Assembly (NCBI GenBank): GCA_965230975.1
Contig: OZ246402.1
Coordinates: 800,859 to 864,858, forward strand
Length of the DNA: 64,000 bases
Origin: an uncultured Candidatus Saccharibacteria bacterium
Lineage (GTDB): Bacteria > Patescibacteriota > Dojkabacteria > J137
Direction: 5' to 3'
The stretch's first letter is position 1. Every line of letters begins with the position of its first letter. A model generated the notes under the pieces. The model had not been told where the DNA came from. It saw only the letters and a list, made by a program, of their open reading frames with translations, and did no database searches. Position numbers and translations under genes: made by a program. Positions 4,589 to 44,876 of the stretch are shown in pieces.

Positions 4589-6322
4589 ATGGATGGGTCA
4601 CTACTTTCATTAAGAGATGTTTCAATTATACTAATAACTGGCTCAATTGCCGGCTATATAAGTTTAAGATTAAAGCTCCCAACTATAATAGGCTACATTT
4701 TGGCTGGTGTTTTGCTTTCAATAATACTGCCTTTATTAAACATTACTGGTGGTTTAAATTCTAATTTTGTAGGGCAAATTGCCAGTTTTGGGGTAGCCTT
4801 ACTATTGTTTGCTGCTGGTATAGAATTTTCGGTAAATAATATTAAGAGTATTAAAAACCTGGTTATATTTGGAGTATTGGCTCAAACATTGCTAACTATA
4901 GTATTTGGAATTATATTTATGCCGCTTTTTGGGTTAAGCTCTTACGAAAGTTTATTTGTTGGAGTAGTTGCCGCAACCAGTTCAACAGCATTCGTTTTAA
5001 AAATGCTAGAACAAAACGAAGAGATATCATCTACTGCAAGCAATATAATGATTGGATGGTTAATTGTGCAAGATATTCTTGGAATTGCTTTGTTTTTAAT
5101 ATTAAAAAGTTTTGCTCCAGGTAATACTATAAATATTGTTACACTTGCAGACCCAATTATAAAAAGTCTTTTACTTATAGTTTTAACGTTTACTATTGGT
5201 AAAGTAATAGTACCACCAATTTTCAGAGAAATTTCAAAAACAAGATCCCAAGAATTGTTATTAGTTTCTGTAATTGCTTTAAGTATTGGATTTGCTTTAC
5301 TATCAGAGGTTTTAGGGGTAAGTTATACTCTTGGAGCATTCCTTACTGGTTTAGCATTATCGGGTACTTTTTTAAAGCACGAAATTTTTACAGAAATAAA
5401 ACCCTTAAGAGATTTATTTTCAATGGTGTTTTTTGTTTCAATTGGATCATTATTAAATGTAAGCAGCATATTCAATAATATCCCTATTATTCTTGCGATA
5501 GTAGTTATTGTACTTGGCTTTAAAGTAGTAACTATATTCTTAGTAAATATATTCTTTAAAACCCACCCTAAAAACTCTGCAAAAGTAGCACTTGGGATTT
5601 CGCAAATTGGGGAGTTTGCATTCTTAGCAATTACAATTGCACAGCATAACAATTGGATCAATATAAATTTTTACTCTGTAATTTTGGTTTCCACAGTTAT
5701 TAGCATGACCCTAACTCCTATTTTATATAGCAATTACAGCACTTTGTTTAAGATTTCAGAAAAGATATTTAGCTCTTACTTTCCAGGTTTATATAGAAAA
5801 TACTATCTATCTAAGTTAAAGAGCTCTCAAAAAAGTGAGCTTTCAAATCATGTAATAATTGTTGGTTATGGAAAAGTTGGGAAATATGTTGCCGAGGCTT
5901 TGAATATTTCTAAAGAGGATTATGTTGTAATTGAATTAGATGCAAATTTAATAGAAAAGGCTATTAGCGATAATCACAAGGTCATATTAGGAGATGCTAC
6001 AAACATAGATACTTTAAAAGAGGCAAAAATAGAATTTGCAAAAGCTTTGGTATTGGCATTACCTGAAAGTAATCATGAATTGTTACAAAAACTTATTTTA
6101 GATGTTAAAGATTTAAATAAAGAGATAGAAATAATAGTAAGATCTAGTAAAGTTGTAAATGATACAGATAACATATCTAGCGTTATAGAACCCGAATTTG
6201 AAGCAGCAGTTAGAATCATTTCTAAGATGGAGGGTATTATTAGCGAAAATAAATATAGTTTAGTAAGAAAAATAAGAGCAATAAGGCGAAAAGAGATTAA
6301 AGAAATACTTGAGAATAATTGA
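4589..6322 (+). CDS. monovalent cation:proton antiporter (CPA2/Kef-type) with C-terminal TrkA-N/RCK domain
   Basis: About 12 TM helices over the first ~400 aa, then a Rossmann motif IIVGYGKVGKYVAEAL characteristic of the RCK/TrkA-N domain of KefB/KefC-like exchangers. Confidence 0.75.
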   Translation: MDGSLLSLRDVSIILITGSIAGYISLRLKLPTIIGYILAGVLLSIILPLLNITGGLNSNFVGQIASFGVALLLFAAGIEFSVNNIKSIKNLVIFGVLAQTLLTIVFGIIFMPLFGLSSYESLFVGVVAATSSTAFVLKMLEQNEEISSTASNIMIGWLIVQDILGIALFLILKSFAPGNTINIVTLADPIIKSLLLIVLTFTIGKVIVPPIFREISKTRSQELLLVSVIALSIGFALLSEVLGVSYTLGAFLTGLALSGTFLKHEIFTEIKPLRDLFSMVFFVSIGSLLNVSSIFNNIPIILAIVVIVLGFKVVTIFLVNIFFKTHPKNSAKVALGISQIGEFAFLAITIAQHNNWININFYSVILVSTVISMTLTPILYSNYSTLFKISEKIFSSYFPGLYRKYYLSKLKSSQKSELSNHVIIVGYGKVGKYVAEALNISKEDYVVIELDANLIEKAISDNHKVILGDATNIDTLKEAKIEFAKALVLALPESNHELLQKLILDVKDLNKEIEIIVRSSKVVNDTDNISSVIEPEFEAAVRIISKMEGIISENKYSLVRKIRAIRRKEIKEILENN

Positions 6323-6406
6323 TTTTCATCAAAGAAAGTCATATAATTCACCTGCTCTTAAAAATATCCAGATCTCTTTACTAATAACGTATTGAGTCAA
6401 AGTTAC

Positions 6407-6929
6407 GAGTTGGTAGCTCAGTGGTAGAGCAGTCCCGTTTTACGGGATTGGTCGGGTAAGTTGTAAAATGTTTCTGGGTGTACAAAATCATAGATTGTGT
6501 ACTAACCAAAAGCAAATTACTTTTTGCTTTCGGGGGTTGGTAGCTCAGTGGTAGAGCAGTCCCGTTTACGGGATTGGTCGGTCAAGTTCATTTATAAAGT
6601 TATGGGTTGGTAGCTCAGTGGTAGAGCAGTCCCGTTTTACGGGATTGGTCGGGTAAGTTGTAAAATGTTTCTGGGTGTACAAAATCATAGATTGTGTACT
6701 AACCAAAAGCAAATTACTTTTTGCTTTCGGGGGTTGGTAGCTCAGTGGTAGAGCAGTCCCGTTTTACGGGATTGGTCGGGTAAGTTGTAAAATGTTTCTG
6801 GGTGTACAAAATCATAGATTGTGTACTAACCAAAAGCAAATTACTTTTTGCTTTCGGGGGTTGGTAGCTCAGTGGTAGAGCAGTGGCCTTTTAAGCCATT
6901 GGTCGGGGGTTCGAATCCCCCCCAACTCA
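6407..6929 (+). repeat. 127-bp tandem array seeded by the 5' half of tRNA-Lys(UUU), 4.5 units, ending in an intact tRNA
   Basis: Each unit is a 50-nt tRNA 5' half (acceptor 5' strand, D arm, anticodon arm GTCCC-GTTTTAC-GGGAT, variable loop, first GGG of the T stem) plus a 77-nt spacer (TAAGTTGTAAAATGTTTCTGGGTGTACAAAATCATAGATTGTGTACTAACCAAAAGCAAATTACTTTTTGCTTTCGGG). 5'-half copies lie at 6407-6456, 6534-6582 (degenerate, one T lost, spacer shortened to 21 nt), 6604-6653 and 6731-6780. The unit-5 start at 6858 is the intact tRNA. Unit starts are spaced by exactly 127 bp. Confidence 0.85.
6858..6929 (+). tRNA. tRNA-Lys (anticodon UUU), intact
   Basis: Full cloverleaf: acceptor GGGTTGG/CCAACTC with a G2-U71 wobble, D arm GCTC-AGTGGTA-GAGC, anticodon arm GTGGC-CTTTTAA-GCCAT (UUU), variable loop TGGTC, T arm GGGGG-TTCGAAT-CCCCC and discriminator A. 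CCA is not encoded. Its anticodon-arm sequence differs from the upstream half-copies. Confidence 0.9.
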
Positions 6930-6951
6930 CTTTTCTTCATTTCAAAATCTC

Positions 6952-7206
6952 ATGTATTACGTTTATATTCTTTATTCTAAGTCTATAGATAAATATTATA
7001 TAGGTTATACCTCAAACCTTGAACTTAGAATAGCTCAACATAATTCTGGATTTCATAAATCAAAGTTTACAAGAAAAAACTCATCTGACTGGGATTTAGT
7101 TTATCAAGAAAAATTTAATTCTAAATCTAAAGCCATCATTAGGGAAAAGGAGATCAAATCTTTTAAAAGTAGGTCTTACATTCAATCACTAATAAAGAAT
7201 CTGTAG
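6952..7206 (+). CDS. GIY-YIG nuclease family protein (UPF0213/YazA-YhbQ-like)
   Basis: 84 aa. It has VYILYS...YYIGYT (GIY...YIG) and the downstream LRIAQHNSG...KFTRK...LVYQEKFNSKSKAIIREKEIKSFK pattern of short stand-alone GIY-YIG proteins. The stop codon overlaps the start of the downstream tRNA fragment. Confidence 0.8.
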   Translation: MYYVYILYSKSIDKYYIGYTSNLELRIAQHNSGFHKSKFTRKNSSDWDLVYQEKFNSKSKAIIREKEIKSFKSRSYIQSLIKNL

Positions 7207-7257
7207 AGAAGTCCCGTTTTACGGGATTGGTCGGGGGTTCGAATCCCCCCCAACTCA
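7203..7257 (+). pseudogene. displaced 3' fragment of tRNA-Lys(UUU): D-stem 3' side through discriminator
   Basis: GTAGAGAAGTCCCGTTTTACGGGATTGGTCGGGGGTTCGAATCCCCCCCAACTCA. Its anticodon arm is the GTCCC/GGGAT type seen in the upstream half-copies, and its T arm and acceptor 3' strand are identical to the intact gene. It lacks the acceptor 5' strand and D-stem 5' side. Confidence 0.85.
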
Positions 7258-7358
7258 CTTATAGTCAATTCTCCTTTAGTAATTTAAAAACAGCTTAGTG
7301 TAACTTCAAATCTACAAAAATAAAGTTTAGAATAGATCTATAACTTTTAGATCTCGTT

Positions 7359-8126
7359 ATGAACGAATATGCTTTAATTACCGGAGCGTCAAGTGGAATT
7401 GGATTAGCGTTAGCTTATGAATTTGCAAGTAAAGGTCATAATTTAGTCCTTGTTGCAAGGACTGAAGATACACTCAAAGAAGTTGCAAAAGCATTAGAAT
7501 CGCAATATGCAATTAAAACAGTAATTATCCCCAAAGATTTAAGTAAACCCGAATCGGCAATCCAATTATTTAAAGATATTGAAAAGCAGAATATATACAT
7601 TAAATACTTAGTTAACAATGCAGGAATTGGAGTTGGAGGCAAATATTTAGAATCTAGTATGGAAGATAATGTAAACTTAGTAAATCTCAATATAATTAAC
7701 TTAATAGAACTTACTCACTTATTTGCCAAGAAAATGCTTGCTACGAATGGCGGGAAAGTATTGAATGTTGCATCAATCGCTGCATTTTTTCCTGGGCCAT
7801 ATTTATCTACATACTATGCATCTAAAGCATTTGTATTAAGCTTTACAGAAGGATTAGCTGCAGAATATTCAAACTCTAACGTTACATTTACTGCACTATG
7901 CCCAGGTTTAACAGAATCTAACTTTGGGAAAAGAGCAGGGGTTGAGAAATCAAGCTTTTGGACACAAAAGAAAATGAGTGCCGAAGAAGTAGCAAAAATT
8001 GGGTACAGCGCTATGCAAGCTGGGAAAACTATAATAATTCCAGGTCTAAGTAATAGAATATTTGTAAGCATTGCTAAAAGAATTCCTAGAGCTTTATTAG
8101 CTCAATTTATTAAAAAACTTTTTTAA
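7359..8126 (+). CDS. SDR-family short-chain dehydrogenase/reductase
   Basis: N-terminal TGASSGIGLALA NAD(P)-binding motif, NNAG, and the catalytic YASKAF (YxxxK) motif. Confidence 0.85.
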   Translation: MNEYALITGASSGIGLALAYEFASKGHNLVLVARTEDTLKEVAKALESQYAIKTVIIPKDLSKPESAIQLFKDIEKQNIYIKYLVNNAGIGVGGKYLESSMEDNVNLVNLNIINLIELTHLFAKKMLATNGGKVLNVASIAAFFPGPYLSTYYASKAFVLSFTEGLAAEYSNSNVTFTALCPGLTESNFGKRAGVEKSSFWTQKKMSAEEVAKIGYSAMQAGKTIIIPGLSNRIFVSIAKRIPRALLAQFIKKLF

Positions 8127-8127
8127 T

Positions 8128-9051
8128 ATGAAAAAACTGCTATTAATATCACTTGCAGTAATCTTATTGATAATATTAAGCTTTATTCTAAAGCCTAGTT
8201 CTTCTACCAAAACTCTATTTGGAATTGTTGGATACACACCTGTTGGGTTCCCAAATGCAGGTGTAGAAGAAATGAGCCAATACTTTAAAGATATTAATCA
8301 GTATTCAAACGTTTATGGAATTAATTCAGAGTTAACAGAGGCAGAACAGCTTGCTGCGCTTTTTACCAGAAATATTAGCAAACCACTTATTTTGGTTTTA
8401 GGATACAAAGACGTGAGTTCTACAGAAAAGATAATTAATATATTAAAAGAGAATCCCAATGTTAAGTATTTAGGATTGGGGAATGAAGTTAATTTAATAT
8501 TTAAAGAAGATGAAACTTTGTTTGATTCGTATTTAGCAAATTACCTCAGCTCTTACGACAAGATTAAAGCCATAAACAATCATGTGAAGATATTTCCTGT
8601 ATTTCAATATGAAGCTCTTATTGGCAAAGGAAAGATAATGGGTGGTGAGAATCAAAGTAACATTGAACTTATTAATAGATTTGCTAAAAAGATTGATCTT
8701 ATTGGGCTAACACTTTACCCACATTTTGATTATGCAACTCCACAAGATATTCCAACAAACTACTTTGAAGATATACTCAGGTTTAACTTACCAATTGGTG
8801 TTACAGAAACAAGTTGGCCATCTAGTGTAAATGCATTTTCAGGTGATTTAGCTTATTTAAATACAACAACACAAGAGCAAAAAGATTATGTTGGCTGGAT
8901 AAATATGCAAGATAAAAATAAATTTGAATTTATTAACTGGTTGTTTTTAAACGATATAGATCAAAACAATCAAGCATTTAAAGGTAGTGCATTAAGGGAT
9001 AAAAATGGTATTTCAAAACCATCATTTGACGAGTGGATTAAGTTAAAATAA
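8128..9051 (+). CDS. secreted TIM-barrel glycoside-hydrolase-like protein (clan GH-A-like)
   Basis: Signal anchor. GLGNEVN and IGVTETSWPS resemble the acid/base (NE) and nucleophile (TE) strands of retaining GH-A hydrolases. The family assignment is uncertain. Confidence 0.35.
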   Translation: MKKLLLISLAVILLIILSFILKPSSSTKTLFGIVGYTPVGFPNAGVEEMSQYFKDINQYSNVYGINSELTEAEQLAALFTRNISKPLILVLGYKDVSSTEKIINILKENPNVKYLGLGNEVNLIFKEDETLFDSYLANYLSSYDKIKAINNHVKIFPVFQYEALIGKGKIMGGENQSNIELINRFAKKIDLIGLTLYPHFDYATPQDIPTNYFEDILRFNLPIGVTETSWPSSVNAFSGDLAYLNTTTQEQKDYVGWINMQDKNKFEFINWLFLNDIDQNNQAFKGSALRDKNGISKPSFDEWIKLK

Positions 9052-9119
9052 ACTATACAAAATATTGAGAAATACCTTCTATAGGCTTATTTTAAGTGAT
9101 ATAATTCGTGGCATGTTTG

Positions 9120-9194
9120 GGGTTTGTAGCTCAGTGGTAGAGCAGTCGCCTCTTAAGCGATTGGTCGAGGGTTCGAATCCCTCCAAGCCCACCA
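9120..9194 (+). tRNA. tRNA-Lys (anticodon CUU), CCA encoded
   Basis: Acceptor GGGTTTG/CAAGCCC, D arm GCTC-AGTGGTA-GAGC, anticodon arm GTCGC-CTCTTAA-GCGAT (CUU), T arm GAGGG-TTCGAAT-CCCTC, discriminator A, then CCA. Confidence 0.85.
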
Positions 9195-9275
9195 TAATGT
9201 TCTTTAAAGAGTTTTAAGTTATAAGTTTTGATGGTAAAATCAAAGCGTTCTAAAATCTTAGAACATACACTACAT

Positions 9276-9348
9276 GTGCCCGTAGCTCAGTGGATAGAGC
9301 AACTGCCTTCTAAGCAGTAGGTCATACGTTCGAATCGTATCGGGCATA
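9276..9348 (+). tRNA. tRNA-Arg (anticodon UCU)
   Basis: Acceptor GTGCCCG/CGGGCAT, D arm GCTC-AGTGGATA-GAGC, anticodon arm ACTGC-CTTCTAA-GCAGT (UCU), T arm ATACG-TTCGAAT-CGTAT, discriminator A. No CCA encoded. Confidence 0.8.
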
Positions 9349-9658
9349 TATATACAAACACTACCCAGATATAAACATAGAAGTAAACATTGAGAATAGC
9401 AAAACACAAAAATTTATGACTCAACTTGCTTGGGATTCTGGACTATTACCTACAAATTGGAATCAGTTCATAGAAGAAGCTGATAGACTAATCAGAGAAG
9501 AAAATGAGGTTGATTTTAAATAAATAATCAAAGAATGCTATATTTCAATTCATTAATCCAATTAAATACAAATTATTAGCAAAGTCTAGTTATTTAGTAA
9601 ATTTACAACTAAAAGTATTAAGTGCTATGATCTTTGAATAAATTATTAAACCACTAAT

Positions 9659-10009
9659 ATGGATTTTTTAAGACTTAGAAATTTTCCACAAGAGGAACAA
9701 TTAGAGTTACTAAGAAAACTTAGAATGTTACTAAGAAATTTAGAAAAAGGAACCTCTGATACCAGATTATCTAAAACACAAATTCAGTTTCTACATGGAT
9801 TCACTGGAGATGTAAGAAATTATATACGCTATCAAGGAAATCTTGGATCATTCGCTTTTATTTCATTTAACCGGTTAAATAGTAAGGGTCTTTACACAGA
9901 TCCTGATGGGAACACTAAAATGGAAGAACAAACTGCTGCAGAGATTGTACCAGAAATTTACGAAATAGGCATTCTGTTAGGTCTTTACGATATAGTCACC
10001 GAAGGTTAA
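9659..10009 (+). CDS. hypothetical protein
   Basis: 116-aa ORF with no recognisable motif. Confidence 0.4.
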   Translation: MDFLRLRNFPQEEQLELLRKLRMLLRNLEKGTSDTRLSKTQIQFLHGFTGDVRNYIRYQGNLGSFAFISFNRLNSKGLYTDPDGNTKMEEQTAAEIVPEIYEIGILLGLYDIVTEG

Positions 10010-35267: not shown

Positions 35268-38200
35268 TTGAGAGTAACATTTAAATTAAAACAACTCTTA
35301 AATAGTGAAAAAATGCTATCAGTTAAGCATTCTTTTCTAACTTCATATAAAAATAATAAAAATAGATTCCACGTTATTATTGGTTTGGTTTTAGTTTTAA
35401 GCATTGCAGGATTAGTTTACGCAGCTACATCTACTAATAATATTGCTACCTCTTCTACAAATACAGCTACCACTGTTTCTACATTAAGAAGGGTAGTAAG
35501 AACAAGCGATGGAACATTACATGCATTTGTACAACTAGGTACAGAGACAATGACCTGTGGTGGAACACCAACAAATGGATTACTCTGGACTTATTCAACA
35601 GATAACGGGACAAATTGGACATGTGGTGGTCAGGTTTCTAACAATGTTAGTATTCTATTTCACGCTTCTGCCGTAGTAGATTCCTCAGATAATATTTATA
35701 TAGTATATTCACCTACAAATAGCGGAGCAAACAGCACTTACGATGCATATTATAGAAAACTAACAAAAGGGTCTGGGTCTACATGGACTTTAGAAAACGC
35801 ACAAACAGTATTAGATGCATCTGCATCTACTGGATTTAACTACGCAACCATAGAAATTGAAGGGACCGATAGACTCTGGGTTGCAGCAAGAAGGTTTGAT
35901 GGCACCAACTATCAAATATCAACTTACTATTCAGACGGGCTCACTACAAACCCTACCTGGGAAACATCTGAAAATGTATTAAGTGTAGCCGGTAATAGCG
36001 CCTCTTACCACATACCTGCAATGTTTAGATTCGGAAATAAAATAGGTATTGTTTATAACTCGCAACTGCCTACTGCAGTTATGAGATGGAGGTTTAGAGA
36101 AGATGGAGAATCTTTAACAAAATGGGCTTCTGAGACAATTATTAACACATTAACAGCTACTGGGCCAACATTTTCTGTAATTTCTGATAGTAATGCAAAT
36201 GCATATTTTGCTTTAAGTAGTACTACTAATGTTTTCTTTAACTATTGGAATGGTAGCGTTTGGTCTCAAAACGCAATAGTTAGTACGACTGCGCTTTCAA
36301 ACAGCTATGTATCTTTAACTACAAACGGTTCTAGCGTCAAAGTAATATATGGTGAATCTACAAATTTAGCTGCTGGTATTACAGGTCTAGGTATTTATAA
36401 ACTATCTTACAAAAATGGATATTTACCATTCTCCTCATCTGAATTTGATGTTACTGCTAGCCCTGTGGTTAGCTACCAAACCACATTTGATAAATATTGG
36501 AGTTACAATGGCACAACTTATACAAACGATACAACAGATGTTGCAAACGCAACTAGTGCAGATACACAAATGACATCTGGGATTGGGAGTATCGCATACT
36601 TTGGAAAACTTGAAAAATTTGACTCTATAGCTTGGGATATTTCTACAAGTGGAGTAACTGGTACTATAGTTTGGGAGTACTGGAACGGGAGTTCATGGAC
36701 AGCCTTAACTTTAAGAAACTCTTCTAGTCCTAACTTTACAGCAGATGGTTGGATAAACTTTGTAGACCCTGCAAACTGGGCAACAACTCAAGTTAATGCA
36801 GAAGGCACACCTTATTATTATGTTAGAGCTAGAACTAGTGTTGCATTTACAACTCAACCTGTAGGTGTTCAAATACTACCAATAACAGGCGTTTTTGGTG
36901 CTAACTTTATACAAAACAGTGTTAGTGGTAGTAGCTATGGTATTTGGACAGAAAACACTGCAAGCAGATTTGTTATTAAACAAGGATCTCTTAGCTATCC
37001 AGCAGTTACTGTAAATAATGCAACAAACACAAATGCAGTAAATAACTTGATAGGATACTCAACACTTGCTACAGCTACTCACCCAAGTACAATGAAAAAT
37101 ATATTACAAACATCTGACGGTACATTTCATGCCTTTATACAAGCTGGGAATAATGTTGCCTGTAATGACACGACTTATAATGGAGGGCTAGTATGGACAT
37201 ATTCTACAGATGAAGGAGTAAATTGGGATTGTGGTGCAGAACTTATGAGCGAAATTGTTAATGTATCTTATGCTTCTGCAGTAAAAGATAGTTCTGATAA
37301 TATTTATGTAGTTTATTCTACTTTAAATAATGCAGGTGGAGTTACAAATGACACCTACTATACAAAGCTAACAAAAGGAGTTGGATCAACCTGGAGCGTA
37401 GGCACTCCAGACTTAGTTTTAGATGCAAGTGGAACAACAGCATATACATACTCAACAGTTGAGATAGAAAATAATACAAGATTATGGCTTGCCACAAGGT
37501 ACTTTGACGGGGTTTATTATCAAATCAATACTTATTATTCATCAGACCTTTCGGGTGCTCCAAACTGGAGTGTTTCGAAAGCCCCATTAACAGCTCTTAC
37601 CGCAACTAGCACATATCTGTACCCTGCAATCGTTAGGTTTGGAAGTAATATTGGTGTAGCTTATAATGCTCAAACTAATAATCAAAGGTGGCGAGTTAGA
37701 TCTGATTCTGACCCGTTGAGCTCTTGGGGTACTGAAAACATTGTAAGCACAGAAGCAGTAGCTAGCCCAAGATTCTCAATTATATCTGATGGAAGTGATA
37801 ATGTTTACTATGGGTCCTTGGTAACATGTTCAATTTATACAACCTTTTGGAACGGTAGAACATGGGCTCCAACAACTACAGTAATAAACAACAACTGTAC
37901 TCAGGTAGCATCTGGCACTTACTTTAGCTTGTCTACTGATGGTACAAATTTAAGGTTATTTTATGGAGAGCCATTAAGTACTAGTACTGGAATTCCCCAA
38001 CATAGACTAGTTTATAGAACAGGTGTACCTCCATATAGTGCAAACAGCTTTGATTTAACTGCAACACAGGTAAATACAATGCATTCAACATTTACTAAGT
38101 ATTGGAGTTATGTTTCAAGTGTTTACCTAAACGACACTACAGATGCCGCAAGTGTGACAAGCGCAGATACTCAAATGCTAACAAACGCAGGAGATATTGC

Positions 38201-41200
38201 ATTTTTTGGATCCAGTTCAAAATTTGATACTGTTGCATGGGATGTTTCAACATTAGGAACTGTTGGATCCGTAATTTGGGAATATTGGAATGGCAGTGCT
38301 TGGGTAGAACTAACAGATTTTACATCAGTATCTAACCCATCTTTTTACAATGATGGATATATTAACTTTGTTACGCCAGTAAATTGGGCTACAACACAAG
38401 TTAATGCAGAAGGCACACCTTACTATTATGTTAGGGCTAGAGTAACAAGGTCATTTAGTGTAGCACCAGTAGGCATTCAGTTTACAACAATGCCATTAGT
38501 TTCTTGGGCAACTGCACTCCCGAATACAAATGCTAATAAAGTTGGTGCTATGTGGACTGAAAACTCAGTTTCATCTATGCCTATAAAATTTCAAAATATT
38601 AGCTTGGGTAGCAATTACACTAATTATAACGCTACGCAAACAGATGTTATTCCAACTTTAGGTTATTCAGCTAATGTCACTTCGCTGGGGCCAACAACTA
38701 TGGAAAGCTATGTTAAAACTTCAGATGGAACATACCACTCATTTGTGCAAGCTGGAAACAAGCAATTTTGTAACGATGCATCATCTACAGTAAACAATGT
38801 TGGTTTAATGTGGGTTTATTCTACCAATGGGTCGGATTGGAATTGTGGAGGTCAATTATCCGGTGATGTTACTAATTTTATGTATGCTTCCGCTACAACC
38901 GACTCTGCAGGAAACATTTATGTAGTTTATTCAGTAACCGCAAATGGAGCAAACATCGCATATAGCACTTATTATAGAAAACTAACAAAAGGGGTTGGTG
39001 CAACATGGACAATAGGAAATGCAAGTCAGGTTCTAAATGCTTCTGCAGGTGGTATTGCTTATTCATACTCTGTTATTAAAGCAGAATCAGATTCAAGATT
39101 GTGGTTAGCAACGCGTTACTTTGATGGTACAAACTATCAAATATCTGCTTACTATACTGATACTTTAGTTGATGATCCTACATGGAACCTTTCAACAATG
39201 AGTCTAAGTGTTGCGACTCCAAGCACAACCGATTTCTTTCCATCAATTGTAAAGTTTGGAAACAATATTGGAATAATTTATGCATCCCAATTCCCTGCAT
39301 CTTATCAAATGTGGAGATACAGAAGTAATTCTCAAGACCCTACTGTTTGGTCATCTCAAATGGTAGTTAATACAGAAAACTTATCTGTACCTGCTTATTC
39401 CACAGTGTCTGATAATGCAGGAAATGTTTATACAGTTTCAGTTAATGGTGCTAATGTTGTATTTAACTATTGGAATGGTAACGTTTGGTCACCCTCTGTA
39501 AACTTATCAACAACCGCCTCTACTGCTTATGCAGGTATTATTACAGATGGTTACAACGTTTGGGTTAACTATTTAGATACAACTGGGCTTATCTCATCTG
39601 GACTTGGATTAAGAAAATTTAGCTACAGAAAAGGAATACCTCCTTACACAGCTACAGAGTGGGAGGCTGCTACAAATTTGGTGACTAATCATGGATTTTT
39701 TGATAAATACTGGAGTTACTTTAGCTCTGTTTACTTAAATGACACAACCGATGTTACTTCTGTTGCAACAGCAGATACTCAAATGCTAAGAAATATAGGA
39801 GATATTGCATATTTTGGGAAATTAGAAAAATTTGATGCAGTATCTTGGGTTTTAAGCACAGCAGGTGTTGGGGGGAATGTTGTTTGGGAATACTATAATG
39901 GGAGTGTTTGGGCACCAATAGAGGATTTTGAGCATAACTTGAATCCTAATTTTATTGGTGCAACAACTGGAATTATATCTTTCAGTCCTGCAAGTGATTG
40001 GCAAACGACCACGGTTAACAGCGAACCCACACCTTATTACTATGTTAGAGCAAGGGTAATTGCAAATTACTCAACAACCCCTGTTGCATCACAAATTGTT
40101 ACAATTCCAAACTTAAATAGCTCTGCATTGCTACCTACTTTAGATGGAAACAATATGTCAGGGCTTTGGACAGAAAACTCGGTAGCTCCTATTCGAATAA
40201 GAAAATACGATATTACATTATCTACAGAAACACCTAACACAGCATCTGCATCTGATTTAATGCCTACCTTAAACTCGGCAACTTGGTATTCTTCAACAAA
40301 CCTAACTAATCAATCATCTACTCAAAGAAGTATTGTAAAAACATCTGATGGCACTATCCATTCATTTGTTTACACTGCTAACTCGCCAGCTTGTGGTGGC
40401 AACTCAACAAGCCAGGCAAATTCAGGTGGGTTAGTTTGGATGACCTCAAGTGATGAAGGTGTAACTTGGGATTGTAAATCTACTTTGTGGTCTGACCCGA
40501 CAATGGGGTACTACGCATCTGCAACAGTAGACAGCAACGACAATATTTATGTTGTTTATTCTCAAGCTGCAAATGGTGGGAGTGTTAATTACGATATTTA
40601 TTATAGAATGATTACAAAAACTGGACCTGGGACTTGGAGCATGGAACCTCAACAAATACTACTTGATTCAATTACTGCTAATACTGGGTACACTTATGCA
40701 ACAATAGAGGTAGAAGGTTCTAATAGACTTTGGGTAGCATTTAGAAATTATAATAATCCAAACTATCAAGTCTCTGTATATTATTCTAGCGCACTAACTT
40801 CTGAACCAGTTTGGACACTTTCAAGCTTAGCATTAGAAAGTGCAGGCACATCTACAAGTTACCATTATCCAACCATTGTACGTTATGGAAGTAATATAGG
40901 AGTTATTTATAGCAATGAAATTGGAGGTGTTTCTACCAGATGGAGATCTAGAGCCGACACAGATGGTTTAACAACATGGGGAACAGAAGCAACAATTATG
41001 GCATCTGCTTCAACAGGGCCATTATTTTCTGCAGTTGGTAGTGATGCTGGTGAAATCTATTTAAGTGTTGGCTCTGCTGCAACTGTTTACTTTACATCAT
41101 GGAATGGAAGTTCTTGGTCAAGTAGAGCAACATTATCTTCAACTGCTATTACAAATGGATTTACAAATGTAAGTATGGTTGGAACAACTGCATATGTTTA

Positions 41201-44200
41201 CTATACCAATGCAAGTGGTTTGAGTGCCGGATTACCAGGTAATAGAAAATTAGTATATAAAAGAGGTGTTGCCCCATACTTAGATGCAAACTTTGATGTA
41301 TCAGAAACAAGTATTGTTTCTTACCACTCACTATTTGATAAAGTTTGGAGTTATGTATCTTCAGTTTACGCAAACGAAACTACAGATGCTTCAAATACAA
41401 CAAGTGCAGATACTCAAATGGTAAGCCAAATAGGGGATATTATATATTTAGGTAAAACTTCTAAATTTGATAATATCTCTTGGGACTTATCTACATTGGG
41501 TACAAATGGAATAATAAGATGGGAGTATTATAATGGTGCTTCTTGGAAAGCAATAAATAAATATTTAGGTGTATTAACTCCATCATTCACAGGAGATGGT
41601 GCAATTTCATTTGTTCCGGCTCAAGACTGGGCACAAACAACAATTAACGGAGAGGGAACATCTTATTATTACGTAAGAGGGGTAGTAACAAGAGCATTTA
41701 GCGTTGTACCAATTGGAGTTCAGTTTGCAAGTATTCCATTACTGTCTCAATTTACAAGCATTGCTAAAGCTAACAACATTTACTACTCATGGACAGAAAA
41801 CTCTGCATCTAACTACAGAGTTAGATTTTCAGCATACATATTTAATGTTGCTCCAAACACACCAACCTCATTGGGCGCTAGTGCAGTAGTAGATGGATCT
41901 CCAACAAAAAACAATCAACCCGAATTTATATTTACAACAAGTGATCTTAACTTAGGAGATACTTCAACATATACTATTCAAATTGATAACGATAGCGATT
42001 TTTCATCTCCAGTAGTAGATTACACTTCTGCATTTACATTAAATGGAGTTAGAGGCTTTGCAGTAGGGCAAGCAGTTGGTAGTGGAATTTACACTACAGG
42101 TTCGCAAGGGCAAACATTGACAGACGGAGATTATTACTGGAGAGTTAAAGCAAGTGACTTAGCAGGTTTAGAATCCGGGTTTGCAGTAGCAAACAGCGGA
42201 AGTGTTGCGTTTAAAATAGATACTGCAAACCCGGCAACAAATGCAAGCAGTATTTTAATGTTAAAAACCGCTGGTGGACCTGGAGTTAACTCTAATGGTT
42301 GGACAAATAACGCATCTCCTTATTTTTCTTGGACACCTGGTGTAGATAACGTAGGTGGTTCTGGAATTTTTGGTTATTGTGTTTATTTAGGAACAGATTC
42401 TAATGGTAATCCAGAAACTAGCAAAGGCTTGTTAGGAACATCACCTGCAACTTTGGTAGATTCAACTTGTCAATTTATAACTACAACTACATCAATTGAT
42501 TTTACCAACGCTAACTTAAAAGGTGGAACATGGCTTACAACATCTTCTAGCCCATATTATATAAACATTAAAGCTATAGATATTGTTGGTAATATATATA
42601 CAACTTCAAGTGCGCAATTTCAGTTTAGGTTTGATAACGTTGCACCAACTAACGTAGCTTTCATAAGCACCGCTGGTGGAACATTTAATAATGTAGCAGA
42701 TATGAGCTTTTCGTGGCCAACAGCAGGTTTAAACACATCATCAGATGCAACATCTGGAGTATTGGGTTGGCAATATGCAATTAATATAACAAGTGGTAGT
42801 TGGCAAGGCACAACAGATAGTACAGAACTAGACGAGAGATATATACCAACAAGTGATAGCAATTACAGCTTAACAAATGTTCAAGATGCAGGTTCTATTG
42901 TGACTGGTAGCAATACAATTTACTTTAGAACAATTGACCAGGCGGGGAATTATTCATCTGAGGGCACAGTTAGAACAGGTGTATTGCAGTTTGGTGGAGC
43001 TGCACCAATGTTCCCACCACTTTCTCAAGTAACAGTAACACCATCCGTGGGAGTATCAAATAATTACGAATTATCTTGGCCAGAAGCAATGTCTGGATCT
43101 GGTGGAGATATTTCAAATTATTACTATATGATAAATATAACGCCACCAACGGTTTTAAGTACTATAACAACAAACCCTGCAACATTTATAAACAACAACT
43201 TAAGTTTAGGAGTTACTGCAAGATCTTTACCAAACGTAAATAGAGGAACGAATACCGTATATGTTGTAGCAGTAGACGAAGATGGACATTATTCACCATC
43301 TAATTATATTACCGGAACATTTGAATTGAATTCAACAGAGCCGGACAATCCAACACAACTTACAGCATCAGATGCATCTATAAAATCTGAAAACAGATGG
43401 ATGGTTACATTAACATGGATTAAACCAGCATACGAAGGTGCAGGAAACTTAACATACTTGGTACATAGATCTTTAGATGGAGTAAGCTTTAGCTTGGTAG
43501 GTACAACTACAAGTTTGTCTTATGTAGATAACCCAGATGAAAGTAGACTATATTATTACAAAGTTTATGCAAAAGATGGAGCTAACCAAACATCGTCCGG
43601 TACAAATGCTGTTTCTGAAACGCCAACAGGTCGGTGGACAGTACCTCCTACACTAGACAATGAGCCAGAAGTTACAAATATTACTACTAAGAAAGCAAAA
43701 ATATCTTGGACAACATCAAGAAAAGCAGATTCTAAAGTAGCTTATGGTACAGAAAGTGGAGTTTACTTCCCGGTTGAACCTAGTACATCTGATTTAACCC
43801 CGGCACACGAAATAAATTTAAATGGTTTACAACCAAGTACTCAATACTATTATATTGCAAGATGGACAGACGAAGATGGTAATACAGGTTCGTCAACAGA
43901 ATATAGCTTTGTAACACAACCTGCCCCAAGTGTTAAAGATGTAGTTGCAAGTAACGTTGGTTTAACATCTGCTATATTAAGATACACAACCTTAGGTGCA
44001 AGCAAAGTAAGGATATTTTATGGAACAACAACATCTTTTGGAGGTTTGAAAGAGGTTTCTACTTCTACTAGCGAAACAGTTCAAACTACAGAAATAACAG
44101 GATTGTTAGATGGTACAAAATACTATTATAGAATAGATACTTTAGATGAAGAATCAGCTCAATACGAAGGAACAATTTTAGACTTTACAACACTACCTAG

Positions 44201-44876
44201 ACCAAAAATTAATAATGTTAGAGTACAGCAAGTTAGAAATACCGCACAGTCAACTGTTTTAATAAGCTGGCAAACAAATACGGAAGTATCTTCTATAGTT
44301 ACATACTATCCGGAAAATCAACCAGGACTTTCTACAGATGAAGTAAATGTCACCTTAACAAAAGGGGATCACAGTATGATAATTAGAGGTTTGCTACCTC
44401 AAACAAATTACAATATTATAGTTAAGGGAAGAGACAGAATGGGAAACGAAGCAGTATCTGATGTTCAAAGATTAACAACTGCAACAGATACTAGACCGCC
44501 GGTATTAAGCAACATTAAAATTGAAGGCGCAATTTCAAAGTTATCAAGTAGTTCTGATAATACTCAAGTTGCTCAAATAGTGGTTAGTTGGAATACCGAT
44601 GAGCCAGCTACATCTCAAGTTGAGTTTGGAGAAGGCACAGGTACAACTTATTCTCAAAGAACACAAGAAGATACTAATTTAACAGTAAATCATTTGGTGG
44701 TAATAACAGGTCTTACACCTTCAAAGGTTTACCACTTAAGAATACTAGCTAAAGATAAAGCAGAGAATTTAGGTAGATCTGTAGATACAGTTACAATTAC
44801 GCCAAAAGGAACGGATAATGCATTGGATTTGGTTTTATCTAGTTTGCAACAAACCTTTGGATTTTTAAATAATTAA
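35268..44876 (+). CDS. giant secreted surface protein (3202 aa): signal anchor, 4 tandem ~540-aa BNR/Asp-box beta-propeller-like modules, then 4 fibronectin-III-like domains
   Basis: N-terminal TM/signal (HVIIGLVLVLSIAGLVYA). Each module begins TSDGT(L/F/Y/I)H(A/S)F(V/I)Q and contains one Asp-box: YSTDNGTNWTCGG, YSTDEGVNWDCGA, YSTNGSDWNCGG, SSDEGVTWDCKS. C-terminal purple-acid-phosphatase-N-type Fn3 domains (KISWTTSRKADSKVAYGTESG..., SKVRIFYGTTTSFG...). Uninterrupted 9.6-kb ORF. Confidence 0.8.
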   Translation: MRVTFKLKQLLNSEKMLSVKHSFLTSYKNNKNRFHVIIGLVLVLSIAGLVYAATSTNNIATSSTNTATTVSTLRRVVRTSDGTLHAFVQLGTETMTCGGTPTNGLLWTYSTDNGTNWTCGGQVSNNVSILFHASAVVDSSDNIYIVYSPTNSGANSTYDAYYRKLTKGSGSTWTLENAQTVLDASASTGFNYATIEIEGTDRLWVAARRFDGTNYQISTYYSDGLTTNPTWETSENVLSVAGNSASYHIPAMFRFGNKIGIVYNSQLPTAVMRWRFREDGESLTKWASETIINTLTATGPTFSVISDSNANAYFALSSTTNVFFNYWNGSVWSQNAIVSTTALSNSYVSLTTNGSSVKVIYGESTNLAAGITGLGIYKLSYKNGYLPFSSSEFDVTASPVVSYQTTFDKYWSYNGTTYTNDTTDVANATSADTQMTSGIGSIAYFGKLEKFDSIAWDISTSGVTGTIVWEYWNGSSWTALTLRNSSSPNFTADGWINFVDPANWATTQVNAEGTPYYYVRARTSVAFTTQPVGVQILPITGVFGANFIQNSVSGSSYGIWTENTASRFVIKQGSLSYPAVTVNNATNTNAVNNLIGYSTLATATHPSTMKNILQTSDGTFHAFIQAGNNVACNDTTYNGGLVWTYSTDEGVNWDCGAELMSEIVNVSYASAVKDSSDNIYVVYSTLNNAGGVTNDTYYTKLTKGVGSTWSVGTPDLVLDASGTTAYTYSTVEIENNTRLWLATRYFDGVYYQINTYYSSDLSGAPNWSVSKAPLTALTATSTYLYPAIVRFGSNIGVAYNAQTNNQRWRVRSDSDPLSSWGTENIVSTEAVASPRFSIISDGSDNVYYGSLVTCSIYTTFWNGRTWAPTTTVINNNCTQVASGTYFSLSTDGTNLRLFYGEPLSTSTGIPQHRLVYRTGVPPYSANSFDLTATQVNTMHSTFTKYWSYVSSVYLNDTTDAASVTSADTQMLTNAGDIAFFGSSSKFDTVAWDVSTLGTVGSVIWEYWNGSAWVELTDFTSVSNPSFYNDGYINFVTPVNWATTQVNAEGTPYYYVRARVTRSFSVAPVGIQFTTMPLVSWATALPNTNANKVGAMWTENSVSSMPIKFQNISLGSNYTNYNATQTDVIPTLGYSANVTSLGPTTMESYVKTSDGTYHSFVQAGNKQFCNDASSTVNNVGLMWVYSTNGSDWNCGGQLSGDVTNFMYASATTDSAGNIYVVYSVTANGANIAYSTYYRKLTKGVGATWTIGNASQVLNASAGGIAYSYSVIKAESDSRLWLATRYFDGTNYQISAYYTDTLVDDPTWNLSTMSLSVATPSTTDFFPSIVKFGNNIGIIYASQFPASYQMWRYRSNSQDPTVWSSQMVVNTENLSVPAYSTVSDNAGNVYTVSVNGANVVFNYWNGNVWSPSVNLSTTASTAYAGIITDGYNVWVNYLDTTGLISSGLGLRKFSYRKGIPPYTATEWEAATNLVTNHGFFDKYWSYFSSVYLNDTTDVTSVATADTQMLRNIGDIAYFGKLEKFDAVSWVLSTAGVGGNVVWEYYNGSVWAPIEDFEHNLNPNFIGATTGIISFSPASDWQTTTVNSEPTPYYYVRARVIANYSTTPVASQIVTIPNLNSSALLPTLDGNNMSGLWTENSVAPIRIRKYDITLSTETPNTASASDLMPTLNSATWYSSTNLTNQSSTQRSIVKTSDGTIHSFVYTANSPACGGNSTSQANSGGLVWMTSSDEGVTWDCKSTLWSDPTMGYYASATVDSNDNIYVVYSQAANGGSVNYDIYYRMITKTGPGTWSMEPQQILLDSITANTGYTYATIEVEGSNRLWVAFRNYNNPNYQVSVYYSSALTSEPVWTLSSLALESAGTSTSYHYPTIVRYGSNIGVIYSNEIGGVSTRWRSRADTDGLTTWGTEATIMASASTGPLFSAVGSDAGEIYLSVGSAATVYFTSWNGSSWSSRATLSSTAITNGFTNVSMVGTTAYVYYTNASGLSAGLPGNRKLVYKRGVAPYLDANFDVSETSIVSYHSLFDKVWSYVSSVYANETTDASNTTSADTQMVSQIGDIIYLGKTSKFDNISWDLSTLGTNGIIRWEYYNGASWKAINKYLGVLTPSFTGDGAISFVPAQDWAQTTINGEGTSYYYVRGVVTRAFSVVPIGVQFASIPLLSQFTSIAKANNIYYSWTENSASNYRVRFSAYIFNVAPNTPTSLGASAVVDGSPTKNNQPEFIFTTSDLNLGDTSTYTIQIDNDSDFSSPVVDYTSAFTLNGVRGFAVGQAVGSGIYTTGSQGQTLTDGDYYWRVKASDLAGLESGFAVANSGSVAFKIDTANPATNASSILMLKTAGGPGVNSNGWTNNASPYFSWTPGVDNVGGSGIFGYCVYLGTDSNGNPETSKGLLGTSPATLVDSTCQFITTTTSIDFTNANLKGGTWLTTSSSPYYINIKAIDIVGNIYTTSSAQFQFRFDNVAPTNVAFISTAGGTFNNVADMSFSWPTAGLNTSSDATSGVLGWQYAINITSGSWQGTTDSTELDERYIPTSDSNYSLTNVQDAGSIVTGSNTIYFRTIDQAGNYSSEGTVRTGVLQFGGAAPMFPPLSQVTVTPSVGVSNNYELSWPEAMSGSGGDISNYYYMINITPPTVLSTITTNPATFINNNLSLGVTARSLPNVNRGTNTVYVVAVDEDGHYSPSNYITGTFELNSTEPDNPTQLTASDASIKSENRWMVTLTWIKPAYEGAGNLTYLVHRSLDGVSFSLVGTTTSLSYVDNPDESRLYYYKVYAKDGANQTSSGTNAVSETPTGRWTVPPTLDNEPEVTNITTKKAKISWTTSRKADSKVAYGTESGVYFPVEPSTSDLTPAHEINLNGLQPSTQYYYIARWTDEDGNTGSSTEYSFVTQPAPSVKDVVASNVGLTSAILRYTTLGASKVRIFYGTTTSFGGLKEVSTSTSETVQTTEITGLLDGTKYYYRIDTLDEESAQYEGTILDFTTLPRPKINNVRVQQVRNTAQSTVLISWQTNTEVSSIVTYYPENQPGLSTDEVNVTLTKGDHSMIIRGLLPQTNYNIIVKGRDRMGNEAVSDVQRLTTATDTRPPVLSNIKIEGAISKLSSSSDNTQVAQIVVSWNTDEPATSQVEFGEGTGTTYSQRTQEDTNLTVNHLVVITGLTPSKVYHLRILAKDKAENLGRSVDTVTITPKGTDNALDLVLSSLQQTFGFLNN
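35490..41960 (+). repeat. intragenic tandem repeat, 4 x ~1.6 kb (modules of the giant protein)
   Basis: Modules start near nt 35490, 37104, 38718 and 40338. Recurrent blocks include NDTTD(V/A)..(A/V)TSADTQM...(I/V)WEYWNGS.W and TTQVNAEGTPYYYVRAR. The copies are diverged, so this is ancient duplication. Confidence 0.75.

Follow-up and report, generated by a model that had tools for sequence, protein, structure and literature searches.

tRNA genes are classic insertion sites. In the stretch of DNA analysed here (64,000 nucleotides, hereafter the window; positions 800,859 to 864,858 of contig OZ246402.1, GenBank assembly GCA_965230975.1, from an uncultured Candidatus Saccharibacteria bacterium placed by GTDB in the Dojkabacteria), one such gene, tRNA-Lys(UUU), is accompanied by an array of partial tRNA copies and by a small gene for a stand-alone GIY-YIG nuclease. 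The comparison of this locus with its relatives indicates that it is probably a native tRNA-Lys(UUU) gene in which a minimal selfish cassette, one member of a large family, has settled. The cassette is a unit of about 330 bp that consists of: (i) a gene for a GIY-YIG protein of 80-90 aa, on the same strand as the tRNA; and (ii) a partial tRNA copy that bears a hairpin.

The closest documented precedent, as regards mechanism, appears to be SegB, a protein of about 220 aa whose C-terminal part is presumed to bind DNA. This phage GIY-YIG nuclease cuts inside tRNA genes at the T-loop motif RAWTSGAAC, drives the UvsX/UvsY-dependent tandem amplification of a tRNA together with a truncated segB, and loses its toxicity upon C-terminal truncation (PMC13096335). 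The locus described here and its relatives share with SegB: (i) a nuclease gene beside tRNA genes; (ii) breakpoints in the region of the T-arm; (iii) the tandem amplification of tRNA sequence and nuclease gene; and (iv) presence/absence polymorphism. But while SegB is phage-borne and longer, the window protein has 84 aa, comprises the catalytic domain only, is encoded in the chromosome and gives no phage matches. In addition, its gene goes together with a partial tRNA copy in which a conserved hairpin is embedded, and while SegB amplifies full tRNA genes, the family of the window protein amplifies pseudo-copies only.

SLX1 requires its partner SLX4 and extra domains. Together with the UPF0213 (YazA-YhbQ) proteins, it provides the best sequence relatives with solved structures (1zg2 and 1ywl, followed by SLX1). 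Both groups are treated as housekeeping or repair proteins, and a link to tRNA, hairpins or arrays was not found in the text of the paper that describes minimal stand-alone GIY-YIG domains, without the C-terminal Asn, in the Slx1 lineage (Dunin-Horkawicz et al., 2006; PMC1564403).

Four kinds of mobile or repetitive systems also invite comparison. Integrase-borne islands and prophages likewise leave an intact tRNA gene and a direct repeat of its 3' part; unlike them, the insert studied here measures 329 bp, carries no recombinase, has one arm swapped for the family hairpin and is iterated in tandem, and mirror-image insertions of the same family duplicate the 5' part and the leader instead (loci L056 and L076 of the genome scan described below). 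IS200/IS605 and REP/RAYT systems are comparable in that a tiny element carries a conserved DNA hairpin, presumably read by its own nuclease, and gives rise to protein-less derivatives that multiply; nevertheless, the nuclease here is of the GIY-YIG type and not an HUH Y1 transposase, the copies are placed in tandem at tRNA genes instead of being dispersed, and their spread seems to be homology-dependent. Group I introns with homing endonuclease genes occur in bacterial tRNA genes, including those of Patescibacteria (PMC13011429), and are thus selfish DNA targeting tRNA genes in similar hosts; an intron was nonetheless rejected here, as no intron core was found with Rfam, the tRNA is continuous and the open reading frame (ORF) lies outside it. 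Finally, type III toxin-antitoxin systems (array, terminator and ToxN/AbiE-type endoribonuclease) are not matched: the protein has a GIY-YIG DNA-nuclease fold and, unlike in those systems, an upstream array is absent from most homologous loci, and tandem nuclease genes are present in many.

Nuclease genes beside tRNA genes are, hence, already known from phage SegB. What appears to be new is the combination of a chromosomal GIY-YIG gene reduced to the catalytic domain, a hairpin in a partial tRNA copy, and tandem units with and without the ORF. No family matching the cassette was found in Rfam, NCBIfam, PHROGs or PADLOC. A literature search, outside of which most subscription journals fell, returned no account of small GIY-YIG genes with pseudo-tRNA hairpins, and an earlier description is possible.

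A Native tRNA Gene and a Foreign Hairpin

All the parts of the locus lie on the plus strand, from 6407 to 7280 (Table 1): four 5' halves of the tRNA, an intact tRNA-Lys(UUU) called by ARAGORN and matched as a tRNA by Rfam, its trailer, the nuclease gene, a 3' fragment of the tRNA and a second trailer copy. Every half carries GTCCCGTTT(T)ACGGGAT where the anticodon arm would be; the halves and the 3' fragment have GTCCCGTTTTACGGGAT, and the intact gene has GTGGCCTTTTAAGCCAT at the equivalent place. This difference between arms (GTCCC/GGGAT in the partial copies versus GTGGC/GCCAT in the intact gene) had been recognised in a first-pass annotation of the sequence, as had the 3' fragment that runs from the 3' side of the D-stem to the discriminator and carries the half-type arm. 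Both observations hold. In that annotation, however, the intact gene was read as a hybrid restored upon integration, and the half-type arm as the original arm of the host.

The relatives of the window contradict that reading. In L094, whose antiporter is 74% identical, the antiporter gene is followed, after 110 nt, by a plain tRNA-Lys(UUU) that equals the intact window gene base for base, including GGGTTGG and GTGGC/GCCAT, and neither halves nor a nuclease gene are found at it. A plain tRNA-Lys(UUU) also follows the antiporter gene in L095 (antiporter 57% identical). In L093 (88%), the leader directly 5' of the tRNA is homologous to the 77-nt spacer of the window, which led to the rejection of this spacer as foreign DNA, and the end of the 22-nt spacer resembles the leader end in L094. 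As for GTCCC/GGGAT, it is the hairpin that the element displays at many tRNAs. Judging from these comparisons, the intact tRNA-Lys(UUU) is native (because the uninterrupted L094 gene is identical to it), the 77-nt spacer is a duplicated native leader, and the hairpin-type arm is foreign.

The insertion itself is delimited by L089, which belongs to the same species group and in which the 22-nt trailer is fused directly to the sequence that follows window position 7280. Hence, 329 bp (6952-7280) have been inserted, in agreement with the small insertion with a duplicated tRNA 3' portion that had initially been suggested. The right trailer copy is colinear with the L089 trailer and of equal length, with 12 of 23 bases matching, and the next ~100 nt are nearly identical. 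The GIY-YIG ORF is the only gene of this insert, and no recombinase gene was found in it; the insert without a recombinase, the unfaithful right copy and the diverged right trailer led to the rejection of an integrase attL/attR site.

The nuclease gene next to the tRNA is polymorphic among relatives: the site is empty or plain in L089, L094 and L095, and occupied in the window, L001, L092 and L098. L092, with a nuclease at least 90% identical, shows at least two halves separated by the 22-nt spacer type of the window and the same tRNA, ORF and fragment; its downstream context differs from that of the window, with small hypothetical genes after the fragment.

Some observations on this neighbourhood deserve to be recorded on their own. 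L089 (JGI 3300014350, Ga0181814_1089154) carries, at positions 2207-2279, a chimeric tRNA: up to TTGGTCG it is like tRNA-Lys(CUU), and from tRNA-Lys(UUU) it has the T-arm, the 3' strand of the acceptor and the trailer, with a T6·C67 mismatch as a result; its left neighbour is a DUF5665 gene, unlike in the window. The joint of the chimera, TTGGTCG, is the point where the halves stop, and this coincidence suggests that tRNA genes have recombined there. In L086 (1-620), a different gene, with no tRNA, precedes the short-chain dehydrogenase gene. The context of the tRNA and the dehydrogenase gene thus varies among very close strains (L086:1-620, L089:1900-2400, L092:480-760), and this locus is, on such comparisons, a rearrangement hot spot.

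The GIY-YIG Protein

The gene that follows the tRNA had been described as coding for a YazA-like GIY-YIG nuclease of 84 aa. The assignment stands: the ORF matches Pfam PF01541 with 58.2 bits (cutoff 22.6) over residues 1-70, and a profile of its homologues finds in the PDB the UPF0213 structures 1zg2 (7e-16) and 1ywl (1.3e-13), followed by SLX1 (3e-6). The protein is thus a stand-alone GIY-YIG domain of the UPF0213/Slx1-like branch, and no model in NCBIfam or PHROGs matches it. Among 34 homologues with 39-70% identity, Y16, G18, T20, R26, H30 and E65 are invariant and Y5 is conserved in at least 90%; these conserved residues presumably correspond to Y6, Y17, R27 and E75 of I-TevI, and nuclease activity is predicted for the protein. 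As the catalytic domain fills residues 1-70, a separate DNA-binding domain is absent. The C-terminal tail is encoded by tRNA-derived sequence, and the TAG stop codon (7204-7206) sits within the 3' tRNA fragment.

Recurrence at Other tRNA Genes

A scan of one genome per species with an 11-sequence alignment yielded 79 loci, mostly from Bacteroidota, Ignavibacteria, Marinimicrobia, Cloacimonadota and Calditrichota (i.e., mostly from the Fibrobacteres-Chlorobi-Bacteroidetes, or FCB, group), with a few Saccharibacteria. A same-strand tRNA lies nearby in 64 of them and an opposite-strand tRNA in 1, and in 54 of the 70 informative loci the first ORF is found 7-101 nt (median 45) 3' of the tRNA. The isoacceptors involved number at least 14, with Asp, Val, Met, Ala, Lys and Asn among the tRNAs. 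The nearest homologues beyond the species of the window are examples: the gene of P0003 (63% identical to the window protein) lies 45 nt after a tRNA-Asp, and that of P0006 (57% identical) 34 nt after a tRNA-Val; in both cases, the ORF is followed by a 3' tRNA fragment and a trailer repeat. Head-to-tail arrays of 2-7 nuclease copies, with a period of ~320-340 bp, occur in 22 of the 79 loci, the array of L085 having seven, and decayed ORFs are also found. Homologues are present in cultured hosts such as Flavobacterium glycines Gm-149 (L070) and Sphingobacterium paucimobilis HER1398 (L064, L072, L074).

In 38 of 57 cases, a protein and its nearest neighbour are linked to the same tRNA isotype, versus 11% expected by chance, which indicates that lineages are target-specific with occasional switches. 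The window protein is closest to Asp-linked proteins. The conserved T-loop would supply the microhomology for such switches.

Beyond these loci, a profile search retrieved 4,436 clusters at 50% identity (E<=1e-10). Its top matches in the representative library, P0164-P0168, are proteins of 125-214 aa with two matched stretches, probably the read-through or fusion of neighbouring tandem units. No match was found by tblastn against phage and plasmid collections, and two exact DNA patterns (the half/spacer junction and the hairpin context) were not found in JGI metagenome contigs.

A Conserved Hairpin at the End of the Open Reading Frame

The hairpin base TCCCG-loop-CGGGA is common to the window and the P0003 and P0006 loci, where it is placed at the end of the ORF. 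In the 357 kb of the 79 loci, hairpins of this type occur 175 times in 109 distinct versions, with stems mostly of 6-8 bp and loops of 3-4 nt. Outside the constant base, Watson-Crick pairing is kept at stem position 6 in 94 of 108 distinct hairpins and at position 7 in 73 of 81, with four pair types represented, and the rarer stem-base variants TTCCG/CGGAA covary as well. Hairpin density amounts to 1.43 per kb around the ORFs (just before or after them) versus 0.14 per kb elsewhere. In the 64-kb window, the strict pattern is found five times, always at this locus, versus 0.01 expected from shuffles, so that the pattern of the locus is not due to chance. With such covariation in its sequence, the hairpin is to be regarded as a selected structure.

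Its location relative to the tRNA is variable. In Lys, Val, Met and Ala elements it takes the place of the anticodon arm, often retaining part of the loop; in Asp elements, that of the T-arm 5' strand and loop; and in L047 and L076 it is in the D-loop. In any case, of the two ends of the tRNA-derived segment, the hairpin always occupies the one that faces the ORF. Units on the right side have 9-24 nt of tRNA homology between ORF and hairpin and then the long 3' part, and units on the left side have the long 5' part, the hairpin and then 6-18 nt to the end of the copy. Upstream halves end 6-18 nt past the hairpin wherever the latter sits; in L047, for instance, they end after the D-arm.

Tandem Halves as Probable Units Without the Open Reading Frame

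On the right of the tRNA, the window has a single unit with the ORF (6952-7280); on the left, there are four units without it, each of them composed of leader and tRNA 5' part with hairpin, and ending 8-9 nt past the hairpin. Initially, all the halves had been described as cut after the first three T-stem bases and followed by an identical 77-nt spacer in a 127-bp array. Actually, they end two or three bases into the T-stem: halves 1, 3 and 4 conform to both statements, and half 2, in which the 1-nt loop deletion already reported was again found, ends after GG and is followed by a spacer of 22 nt. In consequence, start-to-start spacings are 127, 70, 127 and 127, and Tandem Repeats Finder returns a period of 197 bp besides that of 127 bp. 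Half 1 is matched as a tRNA by Rfam at 23.8 bits, below the threshold. The 3' fragment belongs to the repeat family D3, with a start-to-start spacing of 328.

Half 1 starts with GAG, and halves 2-4 and the intact tRNA with GGG; a GAG copy behind the native promoter-like site, followed by GGG copies, is as expected from a crossover in the D-arm region. That promoter-like site, 5' of the entire array, is probably the native tRNA promoter: a AAAGTCATATAATTC box is also found ~17 nt 5' of the uninterrupted tRNA in L094. Promoter-like sites of this kind are no more numerous in the region than expected from shuffles.

Upstream arrays of hairpin-bearing 5' halves are present in ~20 of the 79 loci, e.g., with nine copies (period 69 bp) at a tRNA-Lys in L044, five (88 bp) at a tRNA-Ala in L023, three (71 bp) at a tRNA-Lys in L038 and two (70 bp) at a tRNA-Val in L047. 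Units without the ORF are not restricted to the left side: L040 has five of them, of 132 bp each, downstream of the tRNA, and in L033 a unit retains just the final ~20 nt of the ORF. The L023 mini-units have a short spacer that matches the 5' untranslated region preceding the ORF of L076. In L056, L058, L076, L017 and L030, the ORF is preceded by a 5' half with hairpin and followed by the intact tRNA, whose leader is duplicated, in a mirror image of the right-side layout. From these sequence comparisons, the reading that fits the window halves best is that they are units of the same element that lack the ORF, and not relics of the host gene. The tandem amplification of the upstream half, already proposed in the first-pass annotation, is thus supported.

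In two metagenome-assembled genomes (MAGs) of Saccharibacteria, L025 (2440-2754) and L035, tandem units are compact, the next ORF being placed 14 nt past the hairpin with no tRNA 3' part between; L035 halves have the variant hairpin CTCCGAC...GTCGGAG. As for the native leader, each 77-nt spacer has at its end a stem-loop, AAAAGCAAA...TTTTGCTTT (6500-6533, 6697-6730 and 6824-6857), whose counterpart in L093 (5300-5325) has the stem AAACGCAAA...TTTGCGTTT, with both strands changed and pairing kept; there may therefore be a conserved leader structure directly 5' of tRNA-Lys(UUU). Three antisense ORFs with TTG starts traverse spacer and half on the minus strand (6381-6515, 6566-6712 and 6714-6839; 41-48 aa; N-terminal 36 residues shared); they show no sign of coding and are a mechanical by-product of the repeat.

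Table 1. Features of the tRNA-Lys(UUU) locus (window coordinates).
Feature	Position	Strand	Remarks
Candidate promoter TTGATT-17-TATAAT	6319..6347	+	10/12 consensus matches; 5' of the entire array
5' half 1	6407..6456	+	tRNA-Lys positions 1 to ~52; starts GAGTTGG; ends after T-stem GGG
Hairpin of half 1, TCCCGTTTTACGGGA	6433-6447	+	Occupies the place of the anticodon arm
77-nt spacer, copy 1	6457..6533	+	Identical copies at 6654-6730 and 6781-6857
5' half 2, shortened	6534..6581	+	Hairpin 6560-6573 with 1-nt loop deletion; ends after GG
22-nt spacer, TCAAGTTCATTTATAAAGTTAT	6582..6603	+	Second spacer type; follows half 2
5' half 3	6604..6653	+	Hairpin 6630-6644
77-nt spacer, copy 2	6654..6730	+	Sequence identity to copy 1
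5' half 4	6731..6780	+	Hairpin 6757-6771
77-nt spacer, copy 3	6781..6857	+	Leader of the intact tRNA
Intact tRNA-Lys(UUU), native by comparison	6858..6929	+	ARAGORN; Rfam 77.2 bits; arm GTGGC/GCCAT
22-nt tRNA trailer, CTTTTCTTCATTTCAAAATCTC	6930..6951	+	Identical to the trailer at the L089 empty site
Gene for the 84-aa stand-alone GIY-YIG nuclease	6952..7206	+	Pfam PF01541, E=1e-15
3' pseudo-tRNA fragment	7203..7257	+	D-stem 3' side, hairpin, T-arm, acceptor 3' strand, discriminator
Hairpin of the 3' fragment, TCCCGTTTTACGGGA	7212-7226	+	Folds as DNA in the folding computation
Second trailer copy, diverged, 23 nt	7258..7280	+	Right end of the inserted unit

Proposed Mechanism

A mechanism can be proposed in which the nuclease, which has no DNA-binding domain, would recognise the hairpin as a structure and nick or cut the DNA a few bases away. 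The hairpin is the candidate signal because such a domain is lacking and because it is the sole conserved cis feature. The break would fall inside tRNA-homologous sequence, and its repair could then proceed through homologous recombination, for which the intact gene, the sister chromosome or an incoming allele would serve as partner. Depending on the register, repair would copy the cassette into the empty allele, either by homing or by an ends-in integration that duplicates part of the tRNA; misaligned repair might expand or contract the tandem arrays; and annealing between repeats might delete the ORF, giving rise to mini-units. Expression of the ORF probably rides on transcription of the tRNA.

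Selection on the essential tRNA would keep the hairpin out of a single full-length copy. Full-length tRNA-like genes with the hairpin are found in L028 (1879-2446) and L077 (2382-2460), namely, 86-87-nt 'tRNA-Asp' calls and one tRNA to which no type was assigned; nuclease ORFs are interspersed between them in alternation, with a normal copy nearby, and the presence of the hairpin in full-length copies would be tolerated there because other copies of the tRNA exist.

Several points weigh against this interpretation. Regarding the cut, cleavage at or adjacent to the hairpin is purely conjectural, breakpoints lie at variable distances from the hairpin (6-18 nt) with no clean cut-site signature, and the scarcity of G·T and A·C mispairs prevents the two strands from being told apart, so that the hairpin might act in RNA instead. 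Regarding expression, most Bacteroidota loci have an intrinsic terminator between the tRNA and the ATG, a few bases before the latter, and expression may need read-through. Regarding insertion, the left trailer equals the empty site exactly and the right one is diverged, which fits an insertion after the trailer better than a single crossover within the tRNA. Furthermore, L098 (nuclease 74% identical) has the ORF after the same tRNA with neither hairpin nor fragment; the UPF0213 genes of Firmicutes are, to our knowledge, single-copy and not known as tRNA-linked; and a vehicle for horizontal transfer was not found, the single match among 2.9 million viral contigs of IMG/VR being a locus at a contig end.

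Concerning the insertion point, the ends of arrays and the comparison of trailers point in different directions: in L024 and L004 the repeat extends 13 and 5 nt, respectively, into the next ORF, and in L040 a native-type terminator follows the last unit.

Alternative Explanations

Among the alternatives, the one that survives best, unlikely as it is, also accepts a selfish cassette, but has the hairpin act in RNA, be it as a stem-loop that stabilises or processes the mRNA end or as part of a tRNA-like handle recognised by RNase P or RNase Z, with ordinary unequal recombination between the tRNA-derived repeats as the sole source of the arrays. The placement of the hairpins is compatible with it, as those on the right side lie within a few nt of the stop codon and those on the left 20-40 nt before the ATG; all the units are on the tRNA strand, and the 127-nt unit folds well as RNA (z = -4.3). 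Nevertheless, a generic stabiliser would not require the 5-bp base TCCCG/CGGGA to be the same in different phyla, the hairpin persists in ORF-less halves and mini-units that have no mRNA to protect, and the end points of the halves follow the position of the hairpin.

A domesticated system of benefit to the host is quite improbable. It might consist in the amplification or repair of tRNA genes, in half-tRNAs that act as decoys or antidotes against tRNA-targeting toxins, or in a ToxI-like array. There is a precedent for the first option in the SegB-driven tRNA amplification that helps phage T6 against the Septu defence (PMC13096335), and an array of repeats 5' of a small nuclease gene bears a superficial resemblance to type III toxin-antitoxin systems. 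What is amplified, however, is always a partial, non-functional copy and never the intact gene; up to seven tandem nuclease genes, together with decayed copies, are found; and presence/absence differs among close relatives. As for the half-tRNAs, which the first-pass annotation had considered as possible decoys for anticodon nucleases, the hairpin destroys the anticodon loop, the loop often having no anticodon at all; hairpin-bearing halves also exist at Ala, Val, Met, Asn and Asp tRNAs, and the hairpin may occupy the D-loop or the T-arm instead. A ToxI-like array was rejected in view of the GIY-YIG fold and of the PADLOC matches, which are negligible (E=0.0026 and 0.0094).

Still less credit can be given to the integrating element mentioned above, which would have brought its own tRNA 3' portion (GTGGC/GCCAT), restored a hybrid gene and displaced the original GTCCC/GGGAT end, the native halves being amplified afterwards. 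Such an element would account for the direct duplication of the tRNA 3' part around the ORF and for the presence/absence polymorphism. But it is at odds with the uninterrupted L094 gene, identical to the supposed hybrid, with the native leader that the 77-nt spacer before the intact gene represents, with the occurrence of GTCCC/GGGAT as the family hairpin at Asp, Val, Met and Ala loci of other phyla, and with the lack of an integrase in the 329-bp insert. A split or permuted tRNA and a CRISPR-like array were also considered and rejected.

Least probable of all is the expansion of a single repeat by the assembler: although the short-read contig L001 (coverage 3x) shows one half and spacer, which may reflect a collapsed repeat or true variation, the units are not uniform (half 2 and the 22-nt spacer after it deviate from the rest), L092 has its at least two halves in an independent MAG and assembly, the contigs of L090 and L091 break inside half 1, as at a real repeat, and similar arrays are present in ~20 unrelated genomes, including cultured Pedobacter (L041, L053) and Sphingobacterium (L072, L074, L080). 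The copy number of four for the halves comes from one assembly.

Other Features of the Window

The neighbours of the insert are a Na+/H+ antiporter gene, whose product has its nearest named relatives in Dojkabacteria and Doudnabacteria, and a short-chain dehydrogenase gene. With these antiporter relatives, a contig of 1.19 Mb and numerous ORFs outside any Pfam family, the organism resembles a member of the Patescibacteria. An Rfam scan of positions 5500-10000 gave tRNA matches only; matches to HPnc0260, tmRNA and plastid families were far below thresholds and fell on tRNA-like sequence. Two kb downstream (9120-9349), tRNA-Lys(CUU) and tRNA-Arg(UCU) are both unoccupied, and no further nuclease gene or hairpin was found elsewhere in the 64-kb window. 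An ORF of 3,202 aa (35268-44876) and several other long ORFs have no Pfam family, which is typical of Patescibacteria and unrelated to the cassette.

Significance

The preferred interpretation of a selfish cassette admits a broader proposal, put forward here tentatively: units of ~330 bp might be an unrecognised, and possibly the smallest, class of autonomous mobile DNA, whose nuclease, reduced to the catalytic domain, would read a DNA hairpin in a mimic of the host tRNA gene, spread, switch targets and amplify by break-induced recombination, with half-tRNA arrays and chimeric tRNAs as by-products in bacteria of the FCB group and Patescibacteria.

If the interpretation as a selfish cassette is right, a biological role would be provided for 4,436 clusters of genes generically labelled as "GIY-YIG nuclease family protein", and the conserved hairpin would become the candidate recognition site of a minimal structure-specific nuclease. 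The partial or odd tRNA calls, as well as the contig breaks by tRNA genes, that are encountered in Bacteroidota, related phyla and Patescibacteria would find an explanation. The SegB principle, i.e., the GIY-YIG-driven amplification of tRNA loci, would extend from phages to bacterial chromosomes. For the very small genomes of organisms such as the one studied here, possibly with single tRNA gene copies, the cassette would represent a source of tRNA-gene rearrangement and of chimeric tRNAs.

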